Notes: a model not told the origin generated them from the sequence alone. A stretch of DNA of 64,000 bases from Planctomycetota bacterium (GCA_965223545.1 OZ245006.1:1408001-1472000); one strand, 5' to 3'; shown: positions 40,875 through 56,063, numbered from the stretch's first letter. Translations and numbers: made by a program.

Positions 40875-42260
40875 ATGTCCAATCGAGTGTTCTCTCTCGC
40901 CGGCCTCGGCTGCGCGCTCGCGTGCGCCGCGCCACCACCGCCGCTGGTGGCGCCGGTGTTCACCACCGCGGTGCGCCACCGCACCGGAAGCGCACTGACG
41001 GGTGTCCTGCCGGGACGCGCCGCGCACCAACCACTGACGCTGCACGCGCGCTGCAGCCTGCGCTTCACCGAGCAGGTGCCGGCGGTCGGCACGCCGCTGA
41101 GCCAGACCGTACGCGCGACGGTGCGCTCCGGCGCCACCGACCCGCTGCGCGGCGTCAGCACGCTGGCGATCGGAGCGCGCGCCGCCGACGGACCGGCCGC
41201 GCGCGTTCTGTTCGCCGGCCTGCAGGATGGCCAGCCGGTGCGCTCGGCCGAAGTCGCCGCCCTCGACGGGCACGTCGCCCCGGGCCACAGCGCCGCGTTC
41301 CTCGTGCGGTCCGCCGAGGCGCAGCAGATCACGCTGTTGGTCACGGCGACCACGGCGGACCGCGCGCGCGTCGACCTCCAGCTCGCCGGCGACGGCAGCG
41401 ACGCCGACCTGGACGCGGACCTCGAGGCCGAGCTCGGCGCCGGTGCCCCCGCTGCGCCCACCACCGACACCGCGCTGCGCCGCGAGACCGTGACGCTGGA
41501 CGCCGAGCTGGTCGCCGGTGGCGACGCGCTGCTGCTGCTGCTTCCGCTCCCCACCGGCGACGCCTCCGGGGCGCTTGCCGTGCTGCTCGAGCTGGCGCGG
41601 ACCTCCGGCGACGAACACCGGGCCCACCGTGAGCTGGCGCGCGGCCAGATCGCCGCCGAGACCGCCATCGCCAAAGCGCAGACCGCACCGCTGAGCCCGG
41701 CCGAGGTGCAGCTGCAGTCGCTGCGCGAAGCATGCCGCCTGCTGCAGCGCACGCGCGCCCGCAGCGCGCTGCTGCAGCTGGCCGAGAGCGCCGAGGCCGC
41801 GCTGACCGCGGACCTCGCGCTGATGAGTGACCACGCGACCATCCAGGAGTACACCGAGCGGTTGCTCGGCGGTGATCGGGTGACGGGACTGGCGCTGGCC
41901 GGGCCGCAGTTCGGCTACGCGCTCGAGGCCGCCGCCTACGGCCTGTTGGCCGAGCGCCTCGACCGCGAGGCACTGGCCCCCGAGCTGCGCGCCGCGCTGT
42001 TGCGGCACGCCGGGGCGGCCGGCCGCGATCCCGGCGCGCTGGCGGCGGTGTTGCGCGGCGAACCGAGCGTCGCGGGCCTACAGCAGCGCCTGCTGGAGGA
42101 GAACCGCTTCGCTCTCGAGGACAGCGACCTGGGGGCGCGGGTCACCGCCGTGCAGTGGCTGCAGGCGCGGCACGCGGCGCCGACGGCGTTCGACCCGTTC
42201 GGCGATCGCGAAGCGCGGCGCGAAGCCCTCGACGCGGCGCGACAACGAGGGGAGCTGTGA
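40875..42260 (+). CDS. Hypothetical lipoprotein; possible degenerate secretin-like beta region plus helical C-terminus
   Basis: MSNRVFSLAGLGCALAC lipobox-like start. The stop overlaps the next ATG (TGATG). Confidence 0.6.
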   Translation: MSNRVFSLAGLGCALACAAPPPPLVAPVFTTAVRHRTGSALTGVLPGRAAHQPLTLHARCSLRFTEQVPAVGTPLSQTVRATVRSGATDPLRGVSTLAIGARAADGPAARVLFAGLQDGQPVRSAEVAALDGHVAPGHSAAFLVRSAEAQQITLLVTATTADRARVDLQLAGDGSDADLDADLEAELGAGAPAAPTTDTALRRETVTLDAELVAGGDALLLLLPLPTGDASGALAVLLELARTSGDEHRAHRELARGQIAAETAIAKAQTAPLSPAEVQLQSLREACRLLQRTRARSALLQLAESAEAALTADLALMSDHATIQEYTERLLGGDRVTGLALAGPQFGYALEAAAYGLLAERLDREALAPELRAALLRHAGAAGRDPGALAAVLRGEPSVAGLQQRLLEENRFALEDSDLGARVTAVQWLQARHAAPTAFDPFGDREARREALDAARQRGEL

Positions 42261-45200
42261 TGAGCCCGACTCCTCCGCCCGCCACCGAGAACGAGAAGCA
42301 ACCACCGAAGAAGCGGCGCCGGCTGTTGCGATGGACGCTGTACTTGCTCGCCGCGGCCGTCGTGCTCCGCGTTCTGCTCGGCTTGGCGATGCCGTGGCTC
42401 GTCCGCTGGGGCGCCGGCTTCGCCGATCTGGCCGCCGACTACGAGCGCATGCAACTGAGCTTGCTCGGCGGACACGTGCAGATCACGCAGCTGAAGCTGC
42501 ACCAGCGCGACGCCGAGGGCGAAGCCGATCCAGAACGGCCGCTGCTGTTCCTCGAGCACGCCGACGTCGACGTCGACGTGTCGGCCCTGCTCACGGGTAC
42601 GCTGCGCGTGCACACGGTCGAGGTCGACGGCCTGCAGACCTGGGTCGAGCGCACTGCCGAGGAGGACGCGGAAGAGACGCCTGCCGAGCCACCGGCCGAG
42701 AGCGATCCAGCAACCGACGAAGGCGCGACCGGGGATGGCGACGCCACCGCCGAACCAGCGCCCCTCGAGCTCGGGCTGCCGGTGCAGATCGACCGCCTGC
42801 GCATCCAGCACGTACAGGTGCACGTGCGGGACACGACGGTCGAGCCCGGCTTCGACGGCTCGCTGCACGCCGACCTGCACGCCTCGCACCTCGGCCATCC
42901 ACAACGCCCCGGATCGGCGGTGTTGCTGGTCCGCATGCCCGGCGTCCTCGACGCGCTCGACGTGCGCGTCGAGGGCCAGAGCGGAGGCGCCGGCGCCCGC
43001 GCACGGCTCGACGTGGCCCTCGACGGGCTGCGCCTGCCAGCACTGCGCGGCTACCTGCGCGCCGCCGGCATCGCGCCGCACGCCGCGCGGCTCGACTTCG
43101 GTCTGCACTCCGAGCTGACCCTCGAGCCCACCGACGAGACCGGCACGGCCGCCAGCGGCGGGCTGCAGCTTGCCGATCTGGCGCTGCGCGCGGACGGCGC
43201 CGAGGCCGTGGCGCTGGACGCGGTCGAGGTCGACGTCGCGTCGCTCACCAATGCCGCTCTGCACATCCCGCGGATCGCATTGCGCGGCCTGCGCGCGGCG
43301 GCGGGCCGCACTCCCCGAGGAGTGACGCGCGTCGCCGGCCTCGACCTCGGCGGGGCGGCGCCGACCGCCGCACCGGCCGCGGCGGAGCCCGAGGCCGAGG
43401 CAGCACCCCCCGCCGTCGACCCGGCGCCGCGCACGTTCGACTGGCGCATCGACGAGATCGCGGTTTCCGAGGCCGCGGCGCGCTTCACCGACGGCGCGGT
43501 CCAGCCCGAGGTCGACCTCACCGTGCGCCTCGACGCGCTCACCGCCACCGACATCACCGCGGCGTTGGACCAGCCGATCGCGGTCGACGCAGCGCTGTTG
43601 TGCGACGGGTTGGCCGCGCTGACGGCCCAGGCCCGCCTGCAGCTGCAGCCGAACCTGACGGCGAGCGCCACTCTGCGCGGTGAGCGCGTCGCGTTCGACG
43701 CGATCGCCCCGTACTTGGCGGCGGCGGGACTGCAGCCGACCCTGCGCGGCGGCACCCTGGAGCTCGCCCTGGAAGCCGCGGTCGAAACCGATCCGGCGAC
43801 CGCGACCACACGCGCGCGCGTCGCGCTGCGCGACCTGGCCTTGCGCGGCGAACAGCCACTGTTGCAGCTCGGCCACGTCGTGCTCGACGACGTAGTCGCC
43901 GCGCCGGGGCGCGTGCGCTTGGGCGAGATCGACATCGCCGGCCTGCAGCTGCCGGTGCGCGTCGTCGGCGGCGGCAGTGTCGCCCTGCTGGGGTTGCGCA
44001 CGGTACCAGCGAACGACACCGTTGCAGCGCCCGCTCCGGAGACCACCGCGGACGCGGAGCCGCGCAACGACGCAGCGCCGCCGCCTACGGCGTCGCCACC
44101 GTTGCGGTTGGAGATCGGGCACCTGCACTGGCGGGACAGCGCAATCGCCTTCGTCGACGAGAGCCGCGTCCCCGCGCCGGAGATCGACACCCGCGACGTC
44201 GGCGTCGAGATCCGCGACCTGGTCATCGGCGGCGACACCCCGACGCCGCCCGCCACCGTCCGCGCCTGGCTCGTCGCACGCGACGTGACGGAGTCGTTGC
44301 AGCTCACCGGTCAGGTGCAGTCCCGCCCGGGGCCGCTCGACCTGACCACGCGCCTGGCGCTGCGCGGCACCGGTCTGCGGGCGGGGCCGCTGACGCCCTA
44401 CCTCGACGCCGCGGGAATCGAGTCGACCCTGCGCGCCGCCAGCCTGGCCGCCGACATCGAGGCCACCGTGCGCGCCACCGACGACGGCATCGCCGCCAGC
44501 GCGGCAGTGACCGAAGTGGCGCTGCGCGACGGCGACGACGAGCTGGCCGCGATCGACAGCCTGCGCGTCGACGGCGTGGCGGTGGGGCCGCGTTCGACCG
44601 ACATCGATTCGGTCGCGCTCGCCGGCGTGCGACTGCGCGCGGCGCGGGAGGCCGATGGCGCGCTGGCCATCGCCGGCATCCGCCTGCCACCGCCGGCGAC
44701 CGGCGGCGTGCCCGATGTGGTGCCGGAGGCGGCCGCGGGCACGGGCGAGGACGCCGGCCCCACCCCTTCCGCACCGGCTGCCACCCCGCCGGCCGCGCAG
44801 ACACAGCTGCGCCTCGCCGAGTTGCGGATCGACGGGGTCGATCTGCAGTGGCAGGACGCGGCGGTGACGCCAGCTGTCGACACCGCCCTGCAGCTGGCGG
44901 TCGCCCTCGACGGGCTTGCGCTCGGCGGGCCCGCCACCCCTGCGGCGCTGCGCTGTGAGGTCGCGGTGCGCGACGCCATCGAGCAGCTCCGGATCGAAGG
45001 CGAGGTGACGCCCGATCCCGAAGACCTCGGCGTCGCCCTCGACCTCGCCCTGCGCGGAGCGCGCGCCGACGCCCTGCGCGGCTACCTTCCCCCACAGACC
45101 CCGGTGACCCTGCGCGACGGCCGACTCCGGCTGCGGCTGGAAGCCACCGCGGCGATGCGCGACGACGGGGCGCGCGCGGTCGAGGTCGCGTTGACCGACA

Positions 45201-47647
45201 TCGACTACCGCGACGGAGACACCGAACGCCCGCTGCTCGGGCTCGACGCGGTGCGGCTGGCGGCACCGCGCCTGGACGCCGATGCGGGAGTCTACGAGAT
45301 CGCCGAAGTGTCGCTGCGCGGCCTGCAGCTCGACGCCACGCGCAGCGCGGACGGCGCGCTGCACGTGCTCGGTCTGGAGCTGCCCGCAACGCCGCCGGCC
45401 CCGGGCGAGGGCGGCGCAGGCCCAACGCCGACTGGCGAGGAGGCGGCACCGAGTCCCGGCTTCCGCGCCGTCGAGACCGCGCGCCGCCCGACGCGGGCAG
45501 CGCCGCTGCCGCGCGTCGAGCTGGGCGCGTTCGAGGTCGACATCGCGGCGCTCACGTTCGTCGATGAGACCCAGCCCGGGTCCACGCCGCTGGTTGCACG
45601 CGCGCGGCTGGCGACCCCCGCTGCCTGCGTCTTGCTGGCAGAGGATCCCGTCTCTCTGCCCCCCTTGCAGCTCGGTCTGGACCTGGAAGTCGAGCCGGTG
45701 CTCGGCGCGCTCGACGTCGACGTCGTCGTGTCGCCGTTCGCCGACCCACCCGGACTCGAAGTGACCGCCGCCGCGCGCGGCCTGCGCGGGGCCGGCCTGA
45801 CCGAGGTGCTGCCGGCCCTCACCGAGCAGCTCGACGCCAGCGGCATCGACAACGGCAGCGTCGACCTGCACCTGCAGGCCCACTTGCTCGCGCGCCGGCG
45901 CGGCCCGGCAGAACTCGATCTGGAGCGCGGTTTCGGCATCGACCTGGTGCTCGACCAGCTGGCGCTGCGCGCCGTCGAGGACGGTCCGGTCGTCGCCGGC
46001 ATCGGCGGCGTGCAGGTCGAGGTGCGGCGCATCAACCCGTCGACCGGCGCCGTGCACGTGCAGTCGGTAGAGATCGACACACCGACGGCGCGGATCACAC
46101 AGCGCACGGACGGCCTGCTGGTCGCCGGTGTGTTGCTCAAGCCCCCCGTTCCGCCCGAGGGCGAGGGCGAGAGCGACGCGTCGCCCGCGGCAGCGCGCCC
46201 TGCACCGCGCGCTGTGGCCGCGGCCGCCCAGAGCGAGCCTGCGCCGGAGTTTCGCCTCGACCAGCTGCTGGTCAGCGGACTCGACGTCGAGTTCCGCGAC
46301 GAGCGCGCCGAGCCCGCGTTCGTGCTGCCCCTGAACCGATTCGATTGCGAGGTGCGCGGCTTCACCACGCGCGCCTTCGAAGAGCCCGTGCCCCTGCGCT
46401 TCAGCGCCGACCTCGGCGCCGGCGGCGTCGAGCTGCCGGAGCGCGTGCAGAGCGTGGCATTCCCCCTCGGCTTTGCCCAAGCGGCGGTCTCGGCGTTGAC
46501 CGGCGGTGAGGACGCCGTCGGCACCGAATCGCGCCGCGTCCTCGAAGAGCTCGCGATCAACGGCCGGCTGTCGTTCGCGCCACAGCTCGAGGGCGTGGTC
46601 AAGGTCAACCTGGCCGGGCTCGAGCTCCCTGCGCTGCGCGGTCCCGCGGCCGAAGCCGGCGTCGAGATCGGCGACGGTGTGCTCGACTTCGGCACCGCCC
46701 TGCGCTTCCGCGGCGCCCAGGGACTCGACATCGACACCGGCATCACCTTCACCCACCTGTCGATCGACGAGCCTCCGGGCGGACCGATCTCGACCTACCT
46801 GCAGCTGCCGGCGCCGCTCGACTCGGTACTGTTCTTGCTGCGCAACGAGGACGGGGAGCACAAGCTGTCGCCGAGCATTCACATCGGCGCCGCCGGCATC
46901 AGCGCGGGCGAGATCGCGCGCGTCGCCGGCGAAACGCTGGCGCTGACCATCGCCAACGCGGTCGCGGCGGCGCCGCTGCGCGCCACGGGAATGCTCACCG
47001 ACGTGGTCGGCATGACCGGGGCGGCCGAGGACCTCGACGCGCTCACCACGCAGCTGGCGTTCGAGCCGGGTGCCCCGGCGCTGCCAGCCGATGCCGCCGA
47101 CACGCTGCATCGCCTGCTCGCCGAGGTGACCCACGACGAGCAGCTGGTGATCGTCGCGCAGCATCAGTTCGGAGCCGCCGATCTCGAGCTGGCGGCGCGT
47201 CGCGGCAGCCCACCGCCGGACACCTGCCACGAGCTGCTGCTGGGTTTCGCCGAGCGCGAGGCGGTGTTGCAGCGACGCCGGGCAGAGGCCGCCGCGCGGG
47301 CGCGCGCGGTGGTGATCACCGGCCAGCGGGCGACCCCCGACCCGAGCGCCGCACTCCGCGCCATCGAGAGCGAGCTCGGCGAGCTGGCCCTGGCGCGCGA
47401 GGCGGTCCTCGAGCTGTTGGCCCCGGGCGCCGAGCGGCAACGGGCGCGCCGCGCCAAGCACAGCGCGCGCGCCGTCGCCGAACGAAGGCTGGCCGAGGTG
47501 CGCGATCTGGTCGTGGCCAAGCTGCGCGGCTTCGGCGCCGAACTGCCGCAGACGCGCATCGAGGTGCGCAAGCCGCGGCTCGGCCAGGTCGCTGGTGAGG
47601 GCGGCGGCCAAATCGTGCTGCAGGCCCGGCGACGGCAGGTTCAGTGA
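42260..47647 (+). CDS. DUF748/AsmA-like large periplasm-spanning protein with an OmpA-like C-terminal domain
   Basis: N-terminal anchor KKRRRLLRWTLYLLAAAVVL; repeated modules such as WRIDEI.V....RFTD.AVQP and IAPYL...G....L.GG.L; C-terminal LAFEPG...AERR..EVRD. Confidence 0.8.
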   Translation: MSPTPPPATENEKQPPKKRRRLLRWTLYLLAAAVVLRVLLGLAMPWLVRWGAGFADLAADYERMQLSLLGGHVQITQLKLHQRDAEGEADPERPLLFLEHADVDVDVSALLTGTLRVHTVEVDGLQTWVERTAEEDAEETPAEPPAESDPATDEGATGDGDATAEPAPLELGLPVQIDRLRIQHVQVHVRDTTVEPGFDGSLHADLHASHLGHPQRPGSAVLLVRMPGVLDALDVRVEGQSGGAGARARLDVALDGLRLPALRGYLRAAGIAPHAARLDFGLHSELTLEPTDETGTAASGGLQLADLALRADGAEAVALDAVEVDVASLTNAALHIPRIALRGLRAAAGRTPRGVTRVAGLDLGGAAPTAAPAAAEPEAEAAPPAVDPAPRTFDWRIDEIAVSEAAARFTDGAVQPEVDLTVRLDALTATDITAALDQPIAVDAALLCDGLAALTAQARLQLQPNLTASATLRGERVAFDAIAPYLAAAGLQPTLRGGTLELALEAAVETDPATATTRARVALRDLALRGEQPLLQLGHVVLDDVVAAPGRVRLGEIDIAGLQLPVRVVGGGSVALLGLRTVPANDTVAAPAPETTADAEPRNDAAPPPTASPPLRLEIGHLHWRDSAIAFVDESRVPAPEIDTRDVGVEIRDLVIGGDTPTPPATVRAWLVARDVTESLQLTGQVQSRPGPLDLTTRLALRGTGLRAGPLTPYLDAAGIESTLRAASLAADIEATVRATDDGIAASAAVTEVALRDGDDELAAIDSLRVDGVAVGPRSTDIDSVALAGVRLRAAREADGALAIAGIRLPPPATGGVPDVVPEAAAGTGEDAGPTPSAPAATPPAAQTQLRLAELRIDGVDLQWQDAAVTPAVDTALQLAVALDGLALGGPATPAALRCEVAVRDAIEQLRIEGEVTPDPEDLGVALDLALRGARADALRGYLPPQTPVTLRDGRLRLRLEATAAMRDDGARAVEVALTDIDYRDGDTERPLLGLDAVRLAAPRLDADAGVYEIAEVSLRGLQLDATRSADGALHVLGLELPATPPAPGEGGAGPTPTGEEAAPSPGFRAVETARRPTRAAPLPRVELGAFEVDIAALTFVDETQPGSTPLVARARLATPAACVLLAEDPVSLPPLQLGLDLEVEPVLGALDVDVVVSPFADPPGLEVTAAARGLRGAGLTEVLPALTEQLDASGIDNGSVDLHLQAHLLARRRGPAELDLERGFGIDLVLDQLALRAVEDGPVVAGIGGVQVEVRRINPSTGAVHVQSVEIDTPTARITQRTDGLLVAGVLLKPPVPPEGEGESDASPAAARPAPRAVAAAAQSEPAPEFRLDQLLVSGLDVEFRDERAEPAFVLPLNRFDCEVRGFTTRAFEEPVPLRFSADLGAGGVELPERVQSVAFPLGFAQAAVSALTGGEDAVGTESRRVLEELAINGRLSFAPQLEGVVKVNLAGLELPALRGPAAEAGVEIGDGVLDFGTALRFRGAQGLDIDTGITFTHLSIDEPPGGPISTYLQLPAPLDSVLFLLRNEDGEHKLSPSIHIGAAGISAGEIARVAGETLALTIANAVAAAPLRATGMLTDVVGMTGAAEDLDALTTQLAFEPGAPALPADAADTLHRLLAEVTHDEQLVIVAQHQFGAADLELAARRGSPPPDTCHELLLGFAEREAVLQRRRAEAAARARAVVITGQRATPDPSAALRAIESELGELALAREAVLELLAPGAERQRARRAKHSARAVAERRLAEVRDLVVAKLRGFGAELPQTRIEVRKPRLGQVAGEGGGQIVLQARRRQVQ

Positions 47648-49283: not shown

Positions 49284-50849
49284 TCAGCGCCCACCGGCGG
49301 CCGCGGCGTCAGCGTCGCCGTCGGTCTCGCCCTCGCTCTCTTCCTTCTGCAACAACGGGTGCGCTGCCAAGAACGCGCGCCGCTCGGCGAAGAACCTCTT
49401 CAGCCCCGGGCGACGCTCGTCGCCCTGGTCGAGGGCGGCGACGAACGCGTCGTAGCCATACAGCGACTTGTCGTCCTGCTGCACGAACGGCTCGATCTGC
49501 TCACGCCAGGAGTCGATCAAGGCGCCGACCTTCTCCCAGTCCAGCCACTCGTCGACCAAGGCCCGGCAGTGTTCCAAGTACCGGGCGCGCCAGGCAGGCA
49601 CCGACAGCAGAGCACGACAGAGGGCCGCGCGTGGCTCGTCGGCGCGCGCCAGCGGATCGAGCTCCAGGGAGGGTTCCCTGCGCCCATCGCGTTCGCGGCC
49701 GAAGCCGCCGGGCCCGCCGCCGTAGCTGAACGCCTCGTTGTTGTCGCGGAACAGCGGATGGAAGCGGCCGCGACCATCCATGAACAACGCGTAGTCGCTG
49801 CCGCGGTAGTGGTAGCCGTCGCCGTCCATCAACACGTTGTCGAGCGCCAGGAACCAAAGGGTGTGGTCGACGTCGAGCACTTTGGGCAGCTCCTGCTCCA
49901 ACAAGTCGGGGAAGTCGATGCTGAGCGCCGCGCACAGCTCGATCAGCCCCCGCCACGCCGCCTTCTTCGAGGGCGCCGAACGCAGCTCGTAGACCGAGCG
50001 GTAGGCATCCGGGTCCGACCCGCGGTAGGCCAGCGCCGCCTCGCCGGAGAAGTTGGGCCGCACCTTCCAACGACCGGCGCCGGTCTCGCCGAACGCCTCG
50101 CGCAAGAAGTCCCGGTTGATCTGCTGCTCGTTGATGTAGAGCCCCCAGCTCTCGCCGTTGATCACCAGGTGGACGAAGCACGACTTCGGCGCCTTCACGA
50201 AGCGGCCGGCGATGTGCGCGAACAAGACCGAGCGGAGAAACGACGGATCCGCGTGCGCACTGAGCAGGTTGAGCGAGCGATACCCCTTGACGCGCTGGTC
50301 GTCGTGCGCCCAATCGACGGCGATGCCGAGCGACTTCTTGGGCCGGTCCATCACCGTGAAGAACGACGAGCTGCCCCGATAGTGCACGCCGACATCGCGG
50401 TGGTAGACGCCGTCGATCACCAGCGTCGCCGGCAGCTGGATGCCGGTGCGCCAGAAGAGCTTCATCTGCTCGTCCCAATCCGGTGCCTCGAACTCGAGGA
50501 AGATCGTCTGGATCACCTCGCTGTCGTAGAGCCCGCGATCGGGGTACTGCTCGACAGTGTGCTCGTCGACTTGGCGCGGCTCGAGATCGTGCTCCGGCGG
50601 CGGCGAGGAGCGCCGGGTACGCGGCGGGTCCTTGGCGCGTTCGGCGCGGATCCACGCCAACGCGACGTGGCGCTCGGTGTCGTCGAGGCGGCCGTTGTTG
50701 TCGCCATCGAAGCGCTCGACCAGCCGCGTCGCGTACACCGGCGTCCTGCGCTGGGCGACGAGGTCGACGGCGAGAAGCAGAACCGCGCCCGAGAGCGCCC
50801 AGCGGTGACAGGATCGGAGCACGAGGAAGTCCAGGGCCAGGGCCATCAT
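49284..50849 (-). CDS. CotH-family atypical kinase with an N-terminal EF-hand-like loop
   Basis: VGVHYRGSSS, KKSL, LNL, DPSFLR, VINGESWGLYINEQQ, DGY...SDYALF, DNNEAF; DGDNNGRLDDTE is EF-hand-like. Start is uncertain. Confidence 0.85.
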   Translation of the reverse strand: MMALALDFLVLRSCHRWALSGAVLLLAVDLVAQRRTPVYATRLVERFDGDNNGRLDDTERHVALAWIRAERAKDPPRTRRSSPPPEHDLEPRQVDEHTVEQYPDRGLYDSEVIQTIFLEFEAPDWDEQMKLFWRTGIQLPATLVIDGVYHRDVGVHYRGSSSFFTVMDRPKKSLGIAVDWAHDDQRVKGYRSLNLLSAHADPSFLRSVLFAHIAGRFVKAPKSCFVHLVINGESWGLYINEQQINRDFLREAFGETGAGRWKVRPNFSGEAALAYRGSDPDAYRSVYELRSAPSKKAAWRGLIELCAALSIDFPDLLEQELPKVLDVDHTLWFLALDNVLMDGDGYHYRGSDYALFMDGRGRFHPLFRDNNEAFSYGGGPGGFGRERDGRREPSLELDPLARADEPRAALCRALLSVPAWRARYLEHCRALVDEWLDWEKVGALIDSWREQIEPFVQQDDKSLYGYDAFVAALDQGDERRPGLKRFFAERRAFLAAHPLLQKEESEGETDGDADAAAAGGR

Positions 50850-50946
50850 CCGGCCCGATCGTAGCGCGACTCCGGGTTCAGACCCGTCCTTCTCGCCCTC
50901 GGAGCGCAAAGCGCCGTGGCGACCGCGCCGGGCGGCGCGATGGGGA

Positions 50947-51879
50947 TCAGCCCCGCGGGCGCAGGACGGGGAAATCCTGCACTGCCGAGTAGATCGCCGG
51001 CACGTAGCCGACGAGCTCGACCGATTCTGCCCATGCATCGCGCACGTGCGTGTCATCGAAGAAGGTCTGGCCGTACCGCTCCGCGACTGCGCCGAGCTTG
51101 GCGACTCGCGCAGGCTCGCTGGCGAAGTGAGCGCAGTGATCCATCGGGAACCGCCGCAGCGCACGCCGCGCGTCTTCCTGGCCGACTCCGGTCGCGCGAC
51201 TCCGCCCAGCGTCGCTGGCGATCGAGAACAGCGCGAACGGACCGAACGCGGTGATCATCAGCAAGCCGTCCGGCCGGCACACGCGCGCCAGCTCTCCGAT
51301 CCACCGCACGCCATCGTCGGGGTGCAGGTGCGAGAACACGGAAAGCGCGACGACCAGATCGACCGAGTCACTGTCGAGCTGCACCGGTGGAGAAGCACCG
51401 TTGACGAAGAACTGCGCATCGATGTGCGCGTCCGCCCACTCGATGCTGTCCGATCGGACATCGCACGCGCGCAGGCTCGCCCGGGGCAGAGCTGCGCGCA
51501 ACCACCGCGTCACTCGGCCCGGCCCACAGCCGAAATCGAGCACGTCGCGCACTCGTGACCACGACCCGCCGGCATGCAAATCCCACAGCGCTGGCACGGT
51601 CTCGAGGTGCTGGATGCCCAGCCAGAGGTGCTGCTGCGGCGTGTCGCCGCCACCGATGTTGCGCAGCAGTGCATCGGGGGGCGCCGGTGGGAAGAAGCCA
51701 CCGAGCCGATCGGGGTACTCGATGCCGCCGTTGGCCGCAGCCCAGCGCAGCAGCCCGGGGTCATCGGTGCCCGTGTAGTGGTCGCGAAGGTCTGCTCGCT
51801 CCCGGAAGATGGCAGCCAGGACCGCGCGGTACTCAGGGGCGGCCGGAAGAAGCCAGCCGGGTGCGTATGGCGCGTCCAT
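50947..51879 (-). CDS. Class I SAM-dependent methyltransferase
   Basis: VLDFGCGPGRV, CDV, DLVVALSVFSHL, ELARVCRPDG. Confidence 0.88.
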   Translation of the reverse strand: MDAPYAPGWLLPAAPEYRAVLAAIFRERADLRDHYTGTDDPGLLRWAAANGGIEYPDRLGGFFPPAPPDALLRNIGGGDTPQQHLWLGIQHLETVPALWDLHAGGSWSRVRDVLDFGCGPGRVTRWLRAALPRASLRACDVRSDSIEWADAHIDAQFFVNGASPPVQLDSDSVDLVVALSVFSHLHPDDGVRWIGELARVCRPDGLLMITAFGPFALFSIASDAGRSRATGVGQEDARRALRRFPMDHCAHFASEPARVAKLGAVAERYGQTFFDDTHVRDAWAESVELVGYVPAIYSAVQDFPVLRPRG

Positions 51880-52050: not shown

Positions 52051-53127
52051 TCAGTCGTCGATGGCGGCAGCCACCAGGCAGCCGCGGGCGACCGAGGTCA
52101 GGGCCTCCTCAGCGCGGAACACCCGACCGATCGGGATCGGGAAGTCGATCTTGGCGAACTCGTCGCGGAACACCTCGATGAAGCCGCCGATCATGCTGGT
52201 GCCACCGGCGCAGGCGATGTCGACCGGCTCGTTGAACGACGGCATGTTCTCGCCGCTCTCGAAACGGTGCTTGATGTTCTGCAGCAGGTAGCTGATCAGG
52301 TTGCGGTAGTAGATCGAGATGGCCTCTTCTTCGCGGTTCTTCGGATCGCGAATGTCGCCGGCCCGTTCCTTCAGCAGAGTCGCCTTCGACTGGCGAATGC
52401 CGAGCACGTTGGCGACGTTCTTGTCGATCCAGTCGCCGCCGCGCGCCACCGAGAACGACAGGCACGGGATCGACTTGTAGCAGACGCAGGCGTTGGCCAT
52501 GCCACCGCCGAACGACAGGCCGATGCCGGTGAAGTCGCTGTCGGCGAGCTCGGAGAACACCACCGCGTGGGCCTCGTTGATGGCCTTGCCGGTGTAGCCC
52601 ATCTTGCCGAGCATGCTCTCGAACAGGCCCTGGTGGTAGACCACGTTGTTGTCGACGTCGAGCGACTCGGCAGGCACCGAGAAGTAGCAGTTCTCACCCG
52701 GCTTCACGGGCTCACCGAGCACCTTCTGGATGATCAGCTTGATCATCGGCATCGCGTCGACCTCGTTGGGGCTGATCAGCCCGTCGGACATCGGTCGCCG
52801 GGTCTCCTTGCCGAAGACGTTGGCCAGCTCGAACGCCGCCTCGCCGATCACGACGAGCTTGCCGTTGTGCACGACGTAGGGCACCTTGAGCTTGGTCAGC
52901 ATGTTCTTGGAGTAGACATCGCTCTGGATGTCCAAGAACGCGTTGCGCTCGACGGCGACGGTCACGCCACCGCTCTGGTCCTGCATCGCCGCCGCCAGGT
53001 TGGCGGTGCCGATGTCCAGGCCCTTACCGAGCGCGACATCCGCCGAGCTCTCGACTGCGGCGCCACCGACGGCGCCCGGATCGTCCCAGTTCTGGTTTTG
53101 GTCGTCGTTGTGCATGTTGTCGCTCAT
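52051..53127 (-). CDS. Actin-fold ATPase, volactin-like
   Basis: Phosphate-1 GLDIGTAN, connect-1 AINEAHAV, phosphate-2 GLSFGGGM, RGGDWID, adenosine AGGTSMIGGF, connect-2 SVARGCL. Confidence 0.88.
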   Translation of the reverse strand: MSDNMHNDDQNQNWDDPGAVGGAAVESSADVALGKGLDIGTANLAAAMQDQSGGVTVAVERNAFLDIQSDVYSKNMLTKLKVPYVVHNGKLVVIGEAAFELANVFGKETRRPMSDGLISPNEVDAMPMIKLIIQKVLGEPVKPGENCYFSVPAESLDVDNNVVYHQGLFESMLGKMGYTGKAINEAHAVVFSELADSDFTGIGLSFGGGMANACVCYKSIPCLSFSVARGGDWIDKNVANVLGIRQSKATLLKERAGDIRDPKNREEEAISIYYRNLISYLLQNIKHRFESGENMPSFNEPVDIACAGGTSMIGGFIEVFRDEFAKIDFPIPIGRVFRAEEALTSVARGCLVAAAIDD

Positions 53128-53153: not shown

Positions 53154-54797
53154 TCAGCCTCCTCCCTTCAGTTTCTTCAAGCGCGCCAGGTTGGCAGCGA
53201 TGCCCCCACCGGTCTTCTTCTTGACCTGGACGTCGTCCATGTTGGACTCCAAGTTCTCATCTTGTCCGTGGGCAAACAGGCCGTCGAAGCTGACGTCGCC
53301 GGCCTCCACGGCGCTGCTGATGCCCATCTTGCGGCCGAACTTCTCCAGCCGGTCGTTGATCGAACCGGCCAGCTTGTTCAGCGCTTCGCTGATCTCGGGG
53401 TCGGCGCCACCACCGCCTCCACCACCGCTCGCCGCGGCGGGGGCTGAAGCCGGCCCCGTGCCGGTCATCATCTTCGCCTTGAGCTCCGCCACCTCGGTCA
53501 TCAGCTTCATGACGAGTTCCGGGTTGACGTCGGGGCTGCTCAGCGCGGCGGCGAGCATCTGCTGCTCGGGCGAAGCCGCAACCGGGTCGACGGCGGGCGC
53601 GGCCGGGGCCTGCGGTGACACCGGCGCAGCGGGCGCAGGCGGCGCAGCAGGCGCTGCCGGCACAGCGGACGGCTCCTGCGCCGAGGGTTGCGCCAACGGC
53701 GTGGGTTGCGGAGCGGCGGTCGGCGCCACTGGGGCAGACGCCGCAGCGGTGGGCGGTGCCGACGCAGCCGGCGCAGGATCGGCCATCCGCATCGGCTCGT
53801 GGATCGGGCCCGACGACTCCGGCATCGGCTGCACGTTGTGCACCTTGTGGGTCGCCTGCAGCGCGGTGAACTTGGACAGATGGCTCTCCAGATCCGCGAG
53901 CTGATCGCGGAACACGTCGTTGCGAGATTGGGCGCGGGCCAGCTCGGCACGCGCGGTCTCGAGGTCTCGCGCGGCGCGGTCGCGGTCTTCGCAGGCCTGG
54001 CGGAACTCCTCCGCCATGCCCTCGCTGCCCGCCGTGGCCGGCGAGGCCTGCGCCTTGGCCAACGCGGCCTGCGCCCGCTCCAGCTCGGCGCGGGCGGCCT
54101 GCAGCTCGCCGCGCAGCTGCTCGACCTCGCGCTGCAGAGCGTCCCGCTCGGCCGCGACCTTGTCGAGCCCAACCCGCAACGACGCGGCATCACCGCCCGC
54201 CGCATCCAGCTTCTCAGCCATCGCGTCTCGCTCCTGCTGGGCCTGCTGCTGCGCCGACCGCGCGGCCTGCAGAGCCTTCTCGAGCTCCCCGGTCGCGTCG
54301 CTCCGGTCGGCTTCGCGCAGCTTTGAGGCAAAACCGTCGCGCTCGGTGCGCAACTGATCGAGCTCGCCGCGGAGTTGCTCGAGCTCGACTTGCAACTCGA
54401 CGACCTGGGTCTCGAACACATCGCCAGGCCGGCCGAGCTCATCGCCAAGAGAACCGCTGTCGCGCAGGCTCTGTAGCTCGCCGGTGAGTTGCTCGCACTG
54501 TTGGCGCAGCGCGACGATCTCCTCCTCCGCACGCTGCGCGTCGGCGGCCTCGTCCTGGCGCTCCTTGACCAGGTGCTTGAACTCCTGCTGGCTGCGCGCG
54601 ACCAGGAGATCGACCTCCTCGCGCGACATCAGGCCGGAGCCCTCGATGGCCTTCTGCACGGCTTCTTGCAGCATCGCCGCGATGTGCTCCGCACGGATCA
54701 CCTTGACCAACCGACGCCCCTGGCTCTTGAGGTCGTCCAGGGTCGTGGTGCGCGACCTGGCAGCAAGTGCCTGCTTGACGTCGACGATCGAATCCAT
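53154..54797 (-). CDS. Long coiled-coil protein with a Pro/Ala linker and basic C-terminal tail
   Basis: ATG at 54797 preceded by AGGAGG. Roughly 290 aa of E/Q/R/L/A heptads. The stop lies 26 bp before the actin-like gene. Confidence 0.8.
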   Translation of the reverse strand: MDSIVDVKQALAARSRTTTLDDLKSQGRRLVKVIRAEHIAAMLQEAVQKAIEGSGLMSREEVDLLVARSQQEFKHLVKERQDEAADAQRAEEEIVALRQQCEQLTGELQSLRDSGSLGDELGRPGDVFETQVVELQVELEQLRGELDQLRTERDGFASKLREADRSDATGELEKALQAARSAQQQAQQERDAMAEKLDAAGGDAASLRVGLDKVAAERDALQREVEQLRGELQAARAELERAQAALAKAQASPATAGSEGMAEEFRQACEDRDRAARDLETARAELARAQSRNDVFRDQLADLESHLSKFTALQATHKVHNVQPMPESSGPIHEPMRMADPAPAASAPPTAAASAPVAPTAAPQPTPLAQPSAQEPSAVPAAPAAPPAPAAPVSPQAPAAPAVDPVAASPEQQMLAAALSSPDVNPELVMKLMTEVAELKAKMMTGTGPASAPAAASGGGGGGGADPEISEALNKLAGSINDRLEKFGRKMGISSAVEAGDVSFDGLFAHGQDENLESNMDDVQVKKKTGGGIAANLARLKKLKGGG

Positions 54798-55060
54798 GCG
54801 CCTCCTGCCCTTTGCGGGCCCGGAAAAGACGCAAGCTTTGTCGACCCAGCGCCCCCGCCGACTTGAGCCACAGCGGGACGGGAGTTCCCGGGTCGAGGTC
54901 GACGGATGAGACGGCTCATCCCCGCGGCATTCCCGCGGCCGCGGGAAGCCACGCGAAACGGACCACAACGCCGCGGAATCCGACACACCGGCAGCCGGAC
55001 GGTCGCCGGCCAGTCGCGGTCGTCCTTTCAGATCGACCGGGTCTGCCGGTCAAGGATGTT
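54798..55060 (-). promoter_or_regulatory. Long structured upstream region of the coiled-coil/actin operon
   Basis: TTGACC on the minus strand (55048-55053) overlaps the GACCGG/CCGGTC inverted repeat; hairpin 54904-54921; 18-bp palindrome 54930-54947. Confidence 0.4.
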
Positions 55061-55132: not shown

Positions 55133-55573
55133 TCAGAAGGGGATGTCGCCGAAATCGACCTGGTCGCCGCCGCCTGCTTGAGCACCCCCGCCGGAGGCCG
55201 CACGACCGCCGCCGCCGCCGCTACCGCCTTCGCGCGACTCACCGCTGCGGCCACCGACGAACTGGAAGTTCTCGATGATCACTTCGAGCTTGCTGCGCTT
55301 GCCTCCGTCTTGGCTCTCCCAGGTCGAGTACTCGAGCCGCCCTTCGACGAACAGAGGGCTGCCCTTGCCGATGTACTGGTTGAGCACTTCGGCCTGCCGC
55401 CCGAACGCGGTCAGATCGACGAAACAGGTGTTTTCCTTGGTCTCGCCGTTGGTGGTGTACTTGCGGTTGACGGCCATTCCGAGCTTGGCAACGGCGGTGC
55501 CTCCCTGCGTGTACCGCACCTCGACGTCGCGGGTGAGGTTGCCCATCAGGATGACCTTGTTGAAATTCGCCAT
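55133..55573 (-). CDS. ssb: Single-stranded DNA-binding protein
   Basis: NKVILMGNLTRD, KGSPLFVEGRL, Gly-rich tail ending DIPF. Confidence 0.97.
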   Translation of the reverse strand: MANFNKVILMGNLTRDVEVRYTQGGTAVAKLGMAVNRKYTTNGETKENTCFVDLTAFGRQAEVLNQYIGKGSPLFVEGRLEYSTWESQDGGKRSKLEVIIENFQFVGGRSGESREGGSGGGGGRAASGGGAQAGGGDQVDFGDIPF

Positions 55574-55715: not shown

Positions 55716-56063
55716 ATGACGACGAACAACGAACGGCGCGGCGCCCCGCGCGCCGCCGCGCAGCTGCCGCTGCGGCTGTCCCCCGATGCAGAGGCGCAGC
55801 CGGCAACTCTCAAGGATCTTTCCACATCCGGTCTGTGTTGCCGCTACGGCGAGCCCGTCACCGAGATGACCCTGATGGGGATCCAGCTCGAGCTGCCGGG
55901 ACAAGAACAAGCGCACGCCCTGCGCGGCGTCGTCGTGCGCTGCGAGAAGCTGCGCGGCGTCAACCCGCCGACCTACGAGATCGCGATCTACTTCACCGAG
56001 GTGCCGGCGGCGACGCGACAGGCGATCGGCGCGTTCGTCGAGGCCCAGCTGGAAGCCGTCTGA
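55716..56063 (+). CDS. Stand-alone PilZ domain protein
   Basis: RRGAPR (RxxxR) and DLSTSG (DxSxxG); GGAGG ribosome site upstream. Confidence 0.88.
   Translation: MTTNNERRGAPRAAAQLPLRLSPDAEAQPATLKDLSTSGLCCRYGEPVTEMTLMGIQLELPGQEQAHALRGVVVRCEKLRGVNPPTYEIAIYFTEVPAATRQAIGAFVEAQLEAV

Follow-up and report, generated by a model that had tools for sequence, protein, structure and literature searches.

A widespread planctomycete protein family with a conserved C-terminal tail predicted to bind volactin-family actins

Use of the actin groove is known for only a few prokaryotic proteins, ParR and arcadin-2 among them. ParR, which acts in plasmid segregation and is encoded beside its actin, has a separate N-terminal domain of the ribbon-helix-helix DNA-binding type. 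In the available excerpts of the account of the Pyrobaculum system, arcadin-2 is encoded beside the actin crenactin and has a conserved C-terminal helix, preceded by a non-conserved linker, that binds between subdomains IA and IIA, in a groove which polymerised crenactin fills with the D-loop of each following subunit. Arcadin-2 blocks this groove and depolymerises the filaments, and ParR places its C-terminal helix in the same groove of ParM (PMC5173319). The WH2 motif consists of a helix followed by LKKT, and WH2/β-thymosin peptides combine an amphipathic helix in the groove with an extended segment along the actin surface (available text of PMC11589041). For volactin, dynamic filaments have been shown only for Haloferax VolA; according to the accessible part of that report, these filaments bind the membrane by their tips, through factors as yet unknown, and depolymerise rapidly, perhaps via unknown factors, and the accessible supplements list HVO_2016 as uncharacterised (PMC10869688). 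HVO_2016 is a CdpA-like protein encoded adjacent to volactin, which hints at a shared cytoskeletal role, and the portions available of PMC12126565 describe no binding motif in it. Deep-branching magnetotactic bacteria have an actin-like protein, Mad28, with coiled-coil Mad partner proteins alongside MamK; no tail motif or groove binding is described for these in the accessible text of PMC12748827 and PMC12713370.

The window analysed here, a 64,000-nucleotide stretch of a Planctomycetota genome, contains a gene for a multi-domain protein (hereafter, the partner) directly before a gene for an actin homologue (Table 1). The partner reading frame starts at the ATG at 54797, and the segment 53154-53400 (minus strand) encodes its last 81-82 residues. 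The initial annotation had quoted a compact tail following a coiled coil and a Pro/Ala/Gly linker, and this tail is present in the sequence, at the end of the 547-aa ORF after a coiled-coil-type region and the linker. The stalk region gave weak coiled-coil Pfam matches only, and full-length relatives of the partner (n = 71) range from 180 to 694 aa (median 268). No transmembrane segment was found in the partner (top 19-residue hydropathy of 1.61 across 71 close relatives), and the CdpA-like transmembrane domain DUF7139 had no match in the window's partner protein.

Table 1. Positions of the partner gene, its parts, and adjoining genes in the window.
Feature	Position	Strand	Remarks
Volactin-family actin, 358 aa	52051..53127	-	starts 26 nt after partner stop codon
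Partner gene, 547 aa	53154..54797	-	N-domain, coiled coil, Pro/Ala/Gly linker, predicted volactin-binding tail
Terminal amphipathic basic helix, residues 532-544	53166..53204	-	L537 in 80/80 tails; predicted in IA/IIA groove
ESN box and extended strand, residues 516-529	53211..53252	-	N519 in 80/80, E517 in 71/80; within predicted interface
Hydrophobic LF box (FDGLF), residues 502-508	53274..53294	-	F508 in 72/80 tails
Amphipathic pre-tail helix, residues 466 to ~488	53334..53402	-	pattern conserved
Pro/Ala/Gly-rich linker, residues 316-465	53403..53852	-	53% P/A/G
Coiled-coil-type stalk, residues 81-315	53853..54557	-	sequence and length not conserved
N-terminal domain (N-domain), residues 1 to ~80	54558..54797	-	conserved; common to partners of MamK-like actins
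Ribosome-binding site AGGAGG	54801..54806	-	before ATG 54797; relatives start at equivalent position
ssb gene upstream	55133..55573	-	neighbour in part of clade only

This layout resembles that of arcadin-2 in that a conserved C-terminal helix, predicted here to enter the IA/IIA groove, follows a non-conserved linker in a protein encoded beside an actin. It differs in that the partner actin is a planctomycete volactin and not the crenactin of an arcade cluster, and the window tail adds ~30 residues of ESN box and strand, is carried by a coiled-coil stalk with an unrelated N-domain, and lacks a tryptophan anchor. The likeness to ParR likewise consists of a putative adaptor gene beside an actin, a C-terminal helix predicted in the groove, and a distinct N-terminal domain with the potential to hold cargo; unlike ParR, the partner is encoded on an 8.07-Mb contig rather than a plasmid, its N-domain has no ribbon-helix-helix or other match, its stalk is long and variable, and one N-domain serves two actin families. 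As with Mad28, coiled-coil partners accompany an actin-like protein, but no magnetosome context was found at the window, where the neighbouring genes encode Ssb, a PilZ protein, and a methyltransferase; in the genome (91% complete), the best MamM match reached 94.8 bits against a cut-off of 350, and MamI had no match, its control having matched nowhere either.

The ssb gene is probably not part of the partner-volactin system and was rejected as a member, as it is directly upstream in 20 of the 69 close loci with enough DNA and gave a single match in the 81 distant loci scanned; genes for PilZ, prmC-like, and prfA-like proteins recur next to ssb in about one quarter of close loci. Further genes of the window encode an 1,830-aa DUF748 repeat protein (42155-47647, plus strand), a CotH-like kinase (49284-51164, minus), the methyltransferase (50947-51879, minus), and the PilZ protein (55716-56063, plus).

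The actin gene matches the Pfam family Volactin (PF25216) with 283.8 bits (cut-off 35) and its product is 42-43% identical to haloarchaeal volactins; nearly all of its closest relatives are from Planctomycetota. Its predicted model (pLDDT 92.4) resembles MreB, the MamK filament, and BeeR in fold (TM 0.65-0.75, identity ≤20%), and a sequence search of solved structures with the actin alone gave no matches, while profiles retrieved only MamK and MreB. Residues of the nucleotide-binding loops and the catalytic Glu (D38, G40, T41, E185, and G308-G309) are invariant in 64 of 64 sequences. The second phosphate loop of actins usually carries Asp; at this position (residue 205, window 52513-52515), all 64 planctomycete and all 83 haloarchaeal sequences have Ser. 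The genome additionally encodes MreB and a MamK-like actin, and the latter (NF040964, 407 bits, cut-off 400), located elsewhere in the genome, led us to reject the identification of the window actin as saltatorellin: its last residues fit, except for one, the reverse primer given in the accessible part of bioRxiv 817700, and the window actin ends differently. Two variations of the actin gene were also observed among the related loci. Tandem volactin pairs (L103, L117-L120) have a second copy with a helical N-terminal extension of ~140-180 aa and without a tail gene of its own. In one family (L082, L094; 20 of 20 genomes with a volactin match), volactin is very divergent, at 22-23% identity, the gene upstream of it is a different one, and neither the tail nor the N-domain was matched.

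The tail is conserved far beyond chance and travels with volactin across Planctomycetota. Of 79 loci fetched by actin similarity alone, 75 have the tail upstream of the actin, and the four others contain just 0-2 bases of DNA before it. The first 80 residues of the partner were likewise conserved in 72 loci out of 80, a total that counts the window's own locus; the coiled coil and the linker matched only the window's locus. A volactin above the cut-off is encoded in 149 of 401 Planctomycetota genomes, and the tail profile matched 98 of these 401 genomes at E ≤ 0.1. After the nine weakest places (E 0.006-0.095) were dropped, 93 matches at E ≤ 0.005 were kept; when compared with 150 of the 237 volactin places, 81 of the 93 precede a volactin in the same orientation, at a distance of 56-730 bp, and 12 have no adjoining volactin among those 150. 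All 89 genomes with a retained tail match also encode a volactin. Conservation of the tail beside homologous actins, which the initial annotation had proposed as a check, was thus observed both in close loci and phylum-wide. With an iterated profile, an upstream tail was found at 126 of 142 near-full-length actins in L001-L150, a set in which L111-L150 were hand-picked (half for lacking and half for having a tail match), and two of these tails were weak (E of 0.01 and 0.41). The 16 actins without an upstream tail comprise five tandem second copies, four unlinked actins, five divergent paralogues, and two very distant sequences. A library-wide search with the tail profile yielded 223 representatives at E ≤ 0.001; ten distant matches were looked up, and those with names were annotated as “hypothetical” or with generic labels.

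The partner is unlinked from volactin in two families (L111, L114, L116, and L123; L112, L113, L115, and L242), and in one family the tail gene and volactin are at least 40 kb apart. The volactin ORFs of the two unlinked families have long acidic open frames, of up to ~600 codons, before the actin domain. In some planctomycete partners (L120:1860-2819 and L136:1897-3621), the terminal helix is repeated once more downstream, like in the haloarchaeal proteins described below.

The motif was defined from 80 non-redundant tails, which were gathered by the profile, so that the following counts are partly circular. In addition to the residues given in Table 1, L540 is present in 73 of the 80 tails, a basic residue at 539 in 76 and at 541 in 79, and a hydrophobic residue at 543 in all 80; positions 520, 523, and 533 are also hydrophobic. 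The terminal helix has a net charge of +4 in the window (family median +3, range -1 to +6) and a hydrophobic moment of ~0.4, and contains an aromatic residue in 6 of 80 tails. The LKK noted in the initial annotation is not distinctive on its own: 35 of the 80 tails contain it, and a six-frame translation of this genome has 26,924 ORFs of at least 150 aa, 21 of which carry LKK within their final 20 residues.

A complex of the tail with the adjacent actin, the check suggested by the initial annotation, was predicted from actin residues 31-358 and tail residues 481-547, each with its own 64-row alignment. The three runs gave ipSAE values of 0.68, 0.76, and 0.75 (median 0.75), while three controls, all with unrelated proteins and not with a MamK-type tail or another amphipathic peptide, gave 0.00; the ipSAE mark, which 116 of 157 solved pairs reached, as did 2 of 215 mismatched pairs, is a rough guide here because own alignments were used. 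The runs agree in at least 75% of contacts (136-182 contacts; partner pLDDT 55). The best predicted pairs join I533, N536, L537, R539, and L540 of the tail with V55, F191, A195, F199, L351, V352, A355, and I356 of the actin; in the model, the contacted actin residues belong to two helices (the one that follows the catalytic Glu185 and the final one), which we take, from the general actin fold and numbering, to line the IA/IIA groove. Tail residues 516-529 are also in the predicted interface, on an actin side that includes residues 53-60, 77-87, and 127-136, so that the interface takes in the invariant N519 and L537 and the hydrophobic face of the helix. The LF box is not confidently placed, and residues 481-488 are absent from the confident interface. 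Mutual information between the two proteins over 64 paired rows gave no support, the interface containing 2 of the 30 highest-scoring pairs against an expected 4.0. The groove is a known hot spot, so resemblance to solved complexes may be what leads the model to dock an amphipathic helix there. We consider it very probable that the tail binds volactin. The proposal that the tail is an actin-binding peptide gains from both tail conservation and predicted docking, but not in its WH2 label, and FDGLF, part of the quoted segment, is conserved but lies outside the confident interface.

The N-domain occurs in 171 of the 401 genomes, many of which have 2-4 copies. In the window genome, the region L234:3098-5064 (G000:C1:7076097-7078063) contains another N-domain gene (264 aa), which carries a different conserved tail and directly precedes the MamK-like actin gene; an ORF resembling P-loop ATPases is found just upstream. 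We surveyed 51 N-domain ORFs from 61 loci, 40 of which were hand-picked and are mostly copies not beside a listed volactin. A volactin-type tail with volactin next to it was found in 11 ORFs, the other tail with a MamK-like actin next to it in 19, and crossed pairings in none; these counts include kin, are not independent, and so do not amount to a statistical test. Eight ORFs have a volactin-type tail and two the other tail without an actin in the locus, and 11 have neither tail. The group with neither tail includes a 707-aa ORF (L235:1062-3185) in which the N-domain, the coiled coil, and the proline linker lead directly into volactin, from a genome that also holds a normal partner-volactin pair (L119), as well as a partner downstream of its volactin that has the last helix only and a divergent partner before a volactin. 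Six loci (L238, L239, L247, L250, L265, and L267) encode N-domain proteins of 329-1120 aa with neither tail and with no actin in the fetched stretch; N-domain proteins of this kind are further uses of the domain. The two tail types show no likeness (hhalign probability of 0.96%). The MamK-type tail is a candidate MamK-binding motif, present in a genome in which no magnetosome genes were found.

No family could be assigned to the N-domain, for which the protein atlas stayed below 0.9, Pfam matches were scattered, and solved structures gave nothing significant. The predicted model (pTM 0.43) has helices at residues 5-14, 20-25, 36-54, and 59-104, with residues 26-35 extended and followed by two helices; no ribbon-helix-helix family was present among 25 of the 182 Pfam families matched (87 members). 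Foldseek returned no match to the fold at E ≤ 0.001, and a wide search matched the long helix only.

Directly upstream of haloarchaeal volactins is a gene for a DUF7139 (CdpA-like) membrane protein; three such neighbours (L151-L153) match DUF7139 with 124-163 bits. Archaea were sampled through three plasmid records plus 80 metagenome loci from close halophiles, and of the 69 metagenome loci with enough upstream DNA, 55 passed the motif filter and the 14 others were left aside. The cytoplasmic end of the CdpA-like protein has two tandem helices, the first of which can be aligned, with no gaps, to the final 15 residues of the window tail. The profile-profile score between haloarchaeal and planctomycete sequences (25.1) was reached by none of 150 column shuffles and none of 150 block shuffles, and when the planctomycete tail profile was run over 6,670 ORFs of the 83 haloarchaeal loci, the top 20 matches were all the CdpA-like upstream protein. 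These matches are weak (best E of 0.007-0.05) and come from sequences related to each other, and in the reciprocal search of the window genome the tail ranked 219 with the first repeat and 41 with the whole tail, and was missed with three other cuts. Haloarchaeal neighbours also have a separate, more hydrophobic last helix, with aromatic residues in 38 of 71. The resemblance to HVO_2016-type proteins lies in a gene beside volactin whose product, in L151-L153 and relatives, ends in helices like the last 15 residues of the tail; the DUF7139 anchor is absent from the window partner, the sequence likeness is weak, and the comparison was made with these relatives and not with the HVO_2016 sequence itself.

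When the tail profile was run over the 37 viral loci (2,714 ORFs), the top match was an N-domain gene located 2.3 kb upstream (L275), followed by four genes directly upstream of volactin and without an N-domain (E of 0.0002, 0.0008, 0.76, and 5.3). With the haloarchaeal profile, L276 ranked 1 (E = 0.37) and L275 ranked 3 (E = 2.3) among the same 2,714 ORFs, the others ranking 31, 41, and 93. Among the more distant viral volactins (L281-L311, 32-36% identity), most have a small upstream ORF of ~80 aa that begins strand-rich and has W-x-IP-D/E-F in its conserved end, which is a second, unrelated candidate partner. At 12 groove positions, the match to the planctomycete consensus was 0.67 in haloarchaeal actins and 0.45 elsewhere in these actins; in tail-less second copies it was 0.38 vs. 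0.64 and in viral actins with the other partner 0.29 vs. 0.39, and it showed no difference in the helix-bearing viral group (0.50 vs. 0.47).

On this evidence, the odds that the archaeal and bacterial helices share ancestry are about even. A wider reading, which we hold tentatively and rate below even odds, is that volactins of bacteria, haloarchaea, and large viruses share an ancient strand-plus-helix module that covers the WH2 site in reverse and is carried on differing anchors (a CdpA-like transmembrane domain or a soluble N-domain), the planctomycete N-domain with its interchangeable, actin-specific tails plugging volactin and the MamK-like saltatorellin into a common hub. If this were true, the CdpA-like domain would be the haloarchaeal membrane tip-anchor.

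We propose, with somewhat better than even confidence, that the partner is a volactin adaptor whose tethered tail captures a filament end, like ParR or arcadin-2. According to the model, the terminal helix would pack into the IA/IIA groove, with the ESN box and strand running along subdomain I; the tail would thus use the site of ParR, arcadin-2, and WH2, with its extended part before the helix instead of after it. As the groove takes the next subunit in crenactin filaments, the tail could hold only monomers or one free filament end, and on an oligomeric stalk it would most likely capture the free end, anchoring and seeding filaments at the target of the N-domain. Provided that the tail does bind, a tethered end-anchor or nucleator is likely, rather than a pure sequesterer, in view of the N-domain-volactin fusion, of an archaeal counterpart that is membrane-bound and has tandem helices, and of the anchoring of Haloferax filaments by their tips.

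The same groove binding would also be expected of a protein that, in the manner of arcadin-2, sequesters or depolymerises volactin so that it stays monomeric, with the stalk and N-domain serving only to localise or regulate. This alternative, which we consider unlikely yet worth serious weight, has in its favour the arcadin-2 layout (a conserved C-terminal helix after a non-conserved linker, within an actin gene cluster), the predicted wrap over subdomain I, which would be a large monomer interface, and the rapid depolymerisation of volactin in Haloferax reported in the accessible part of PMC10869688. The tail-less fusion of N-domain and stalk to volactin fits a tether better, as does a haloarchaeal neighbour that is a membrane protein with two tandem helices, in organisms where the filaments are tip-anchored.

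It is improbable that the N-domain is the actin-binding part, with the tail binding something else or folding back on its own protein. The N-domain matches the tail in conservation and is encoded ahead of volactin and MamK-like genes alike, but the type of tail tracks the type of actin without a crossed pairing, the fusion retains the N-domain but has no tail, the helix occurs without the N-domain in neighbours from viruses and archaea, and the tail alone passes the complex prediction.

Membrane-targeting amphipathic helices are known from proteins of the MinD/FtsA type, and the initial annotation had named such a helix as its alternative. The terminal helix is amphipathic and basic, with the charge and moment given above, and any membrane link of a partner that has no transmembrane segment must come from elsewhere. 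Targeting of the terminal helix to anionic lipids is improbable, although a dual role is also possible: aromatic residues are rare in the helix and its charge varies down to negative values, the invariant polar N519 and the fixed spacing point to a protein surface, and haloarchaeal neighbours bear similar helices despite their own transmembrane domain.

That the tail is a true bacterial homologue of WH2/β-thymosin is largely refuted, since, for all its predicted amphipathic helix in the same groove and the LKK in the window tail, the LKK is internal to the helix and has L as the next residue, the extended segment precedes the helix, L[KR][KR][TV] occurs in 0 of 80 non-redundant tails and 0 of 132 tails, and no WH2/thymosin profile is among the 20 Pfam families matched at E ≤ 1 by 64 tails (the window tail matched none). 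A search of solved structures with the tail gave nothing significant, and of the earlier comparison with WH2 what is retained is the helix predicted in the actin groove, as an analogue at best with the opposite chain order.

No description of the tail motif or of the adaptor family was found in the accessible literature on volactin, planctomycete actin-like proteins, HVO_2016, saltatorellin, and CdpA-like proteins, with subscription journals and preprint supplements outside this scope; neither is described in the available parts of bioRxiv 817700, PMC12713370, PMC12050087, PMC7221352, bioRxiv 2026.10.26.761892, and PMC12748827. As judged from sequence, the partner represents a widespread and so far undescribed family of putative actin adaptors, whose members pair with either of two actins. 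What is new here is that a shared N-domain heads a second group of proteins, with a different tail, before MamK-like actins, and that one fusion to volactin has no tail. The tail provides a candidate motif and candidate residues for volactin binding, where the accessible text of the CdpA paper notes a neighbouring gene without a mechanism (PMC12126565). The putative adaptors are found in many uncultured planctomycete lineages, in which volactin and the N-domain are encoded at the frequencies given above, and the MamK-like actin with which the second group is paired is the protein proposed to drive planctomycete shape-shifting.
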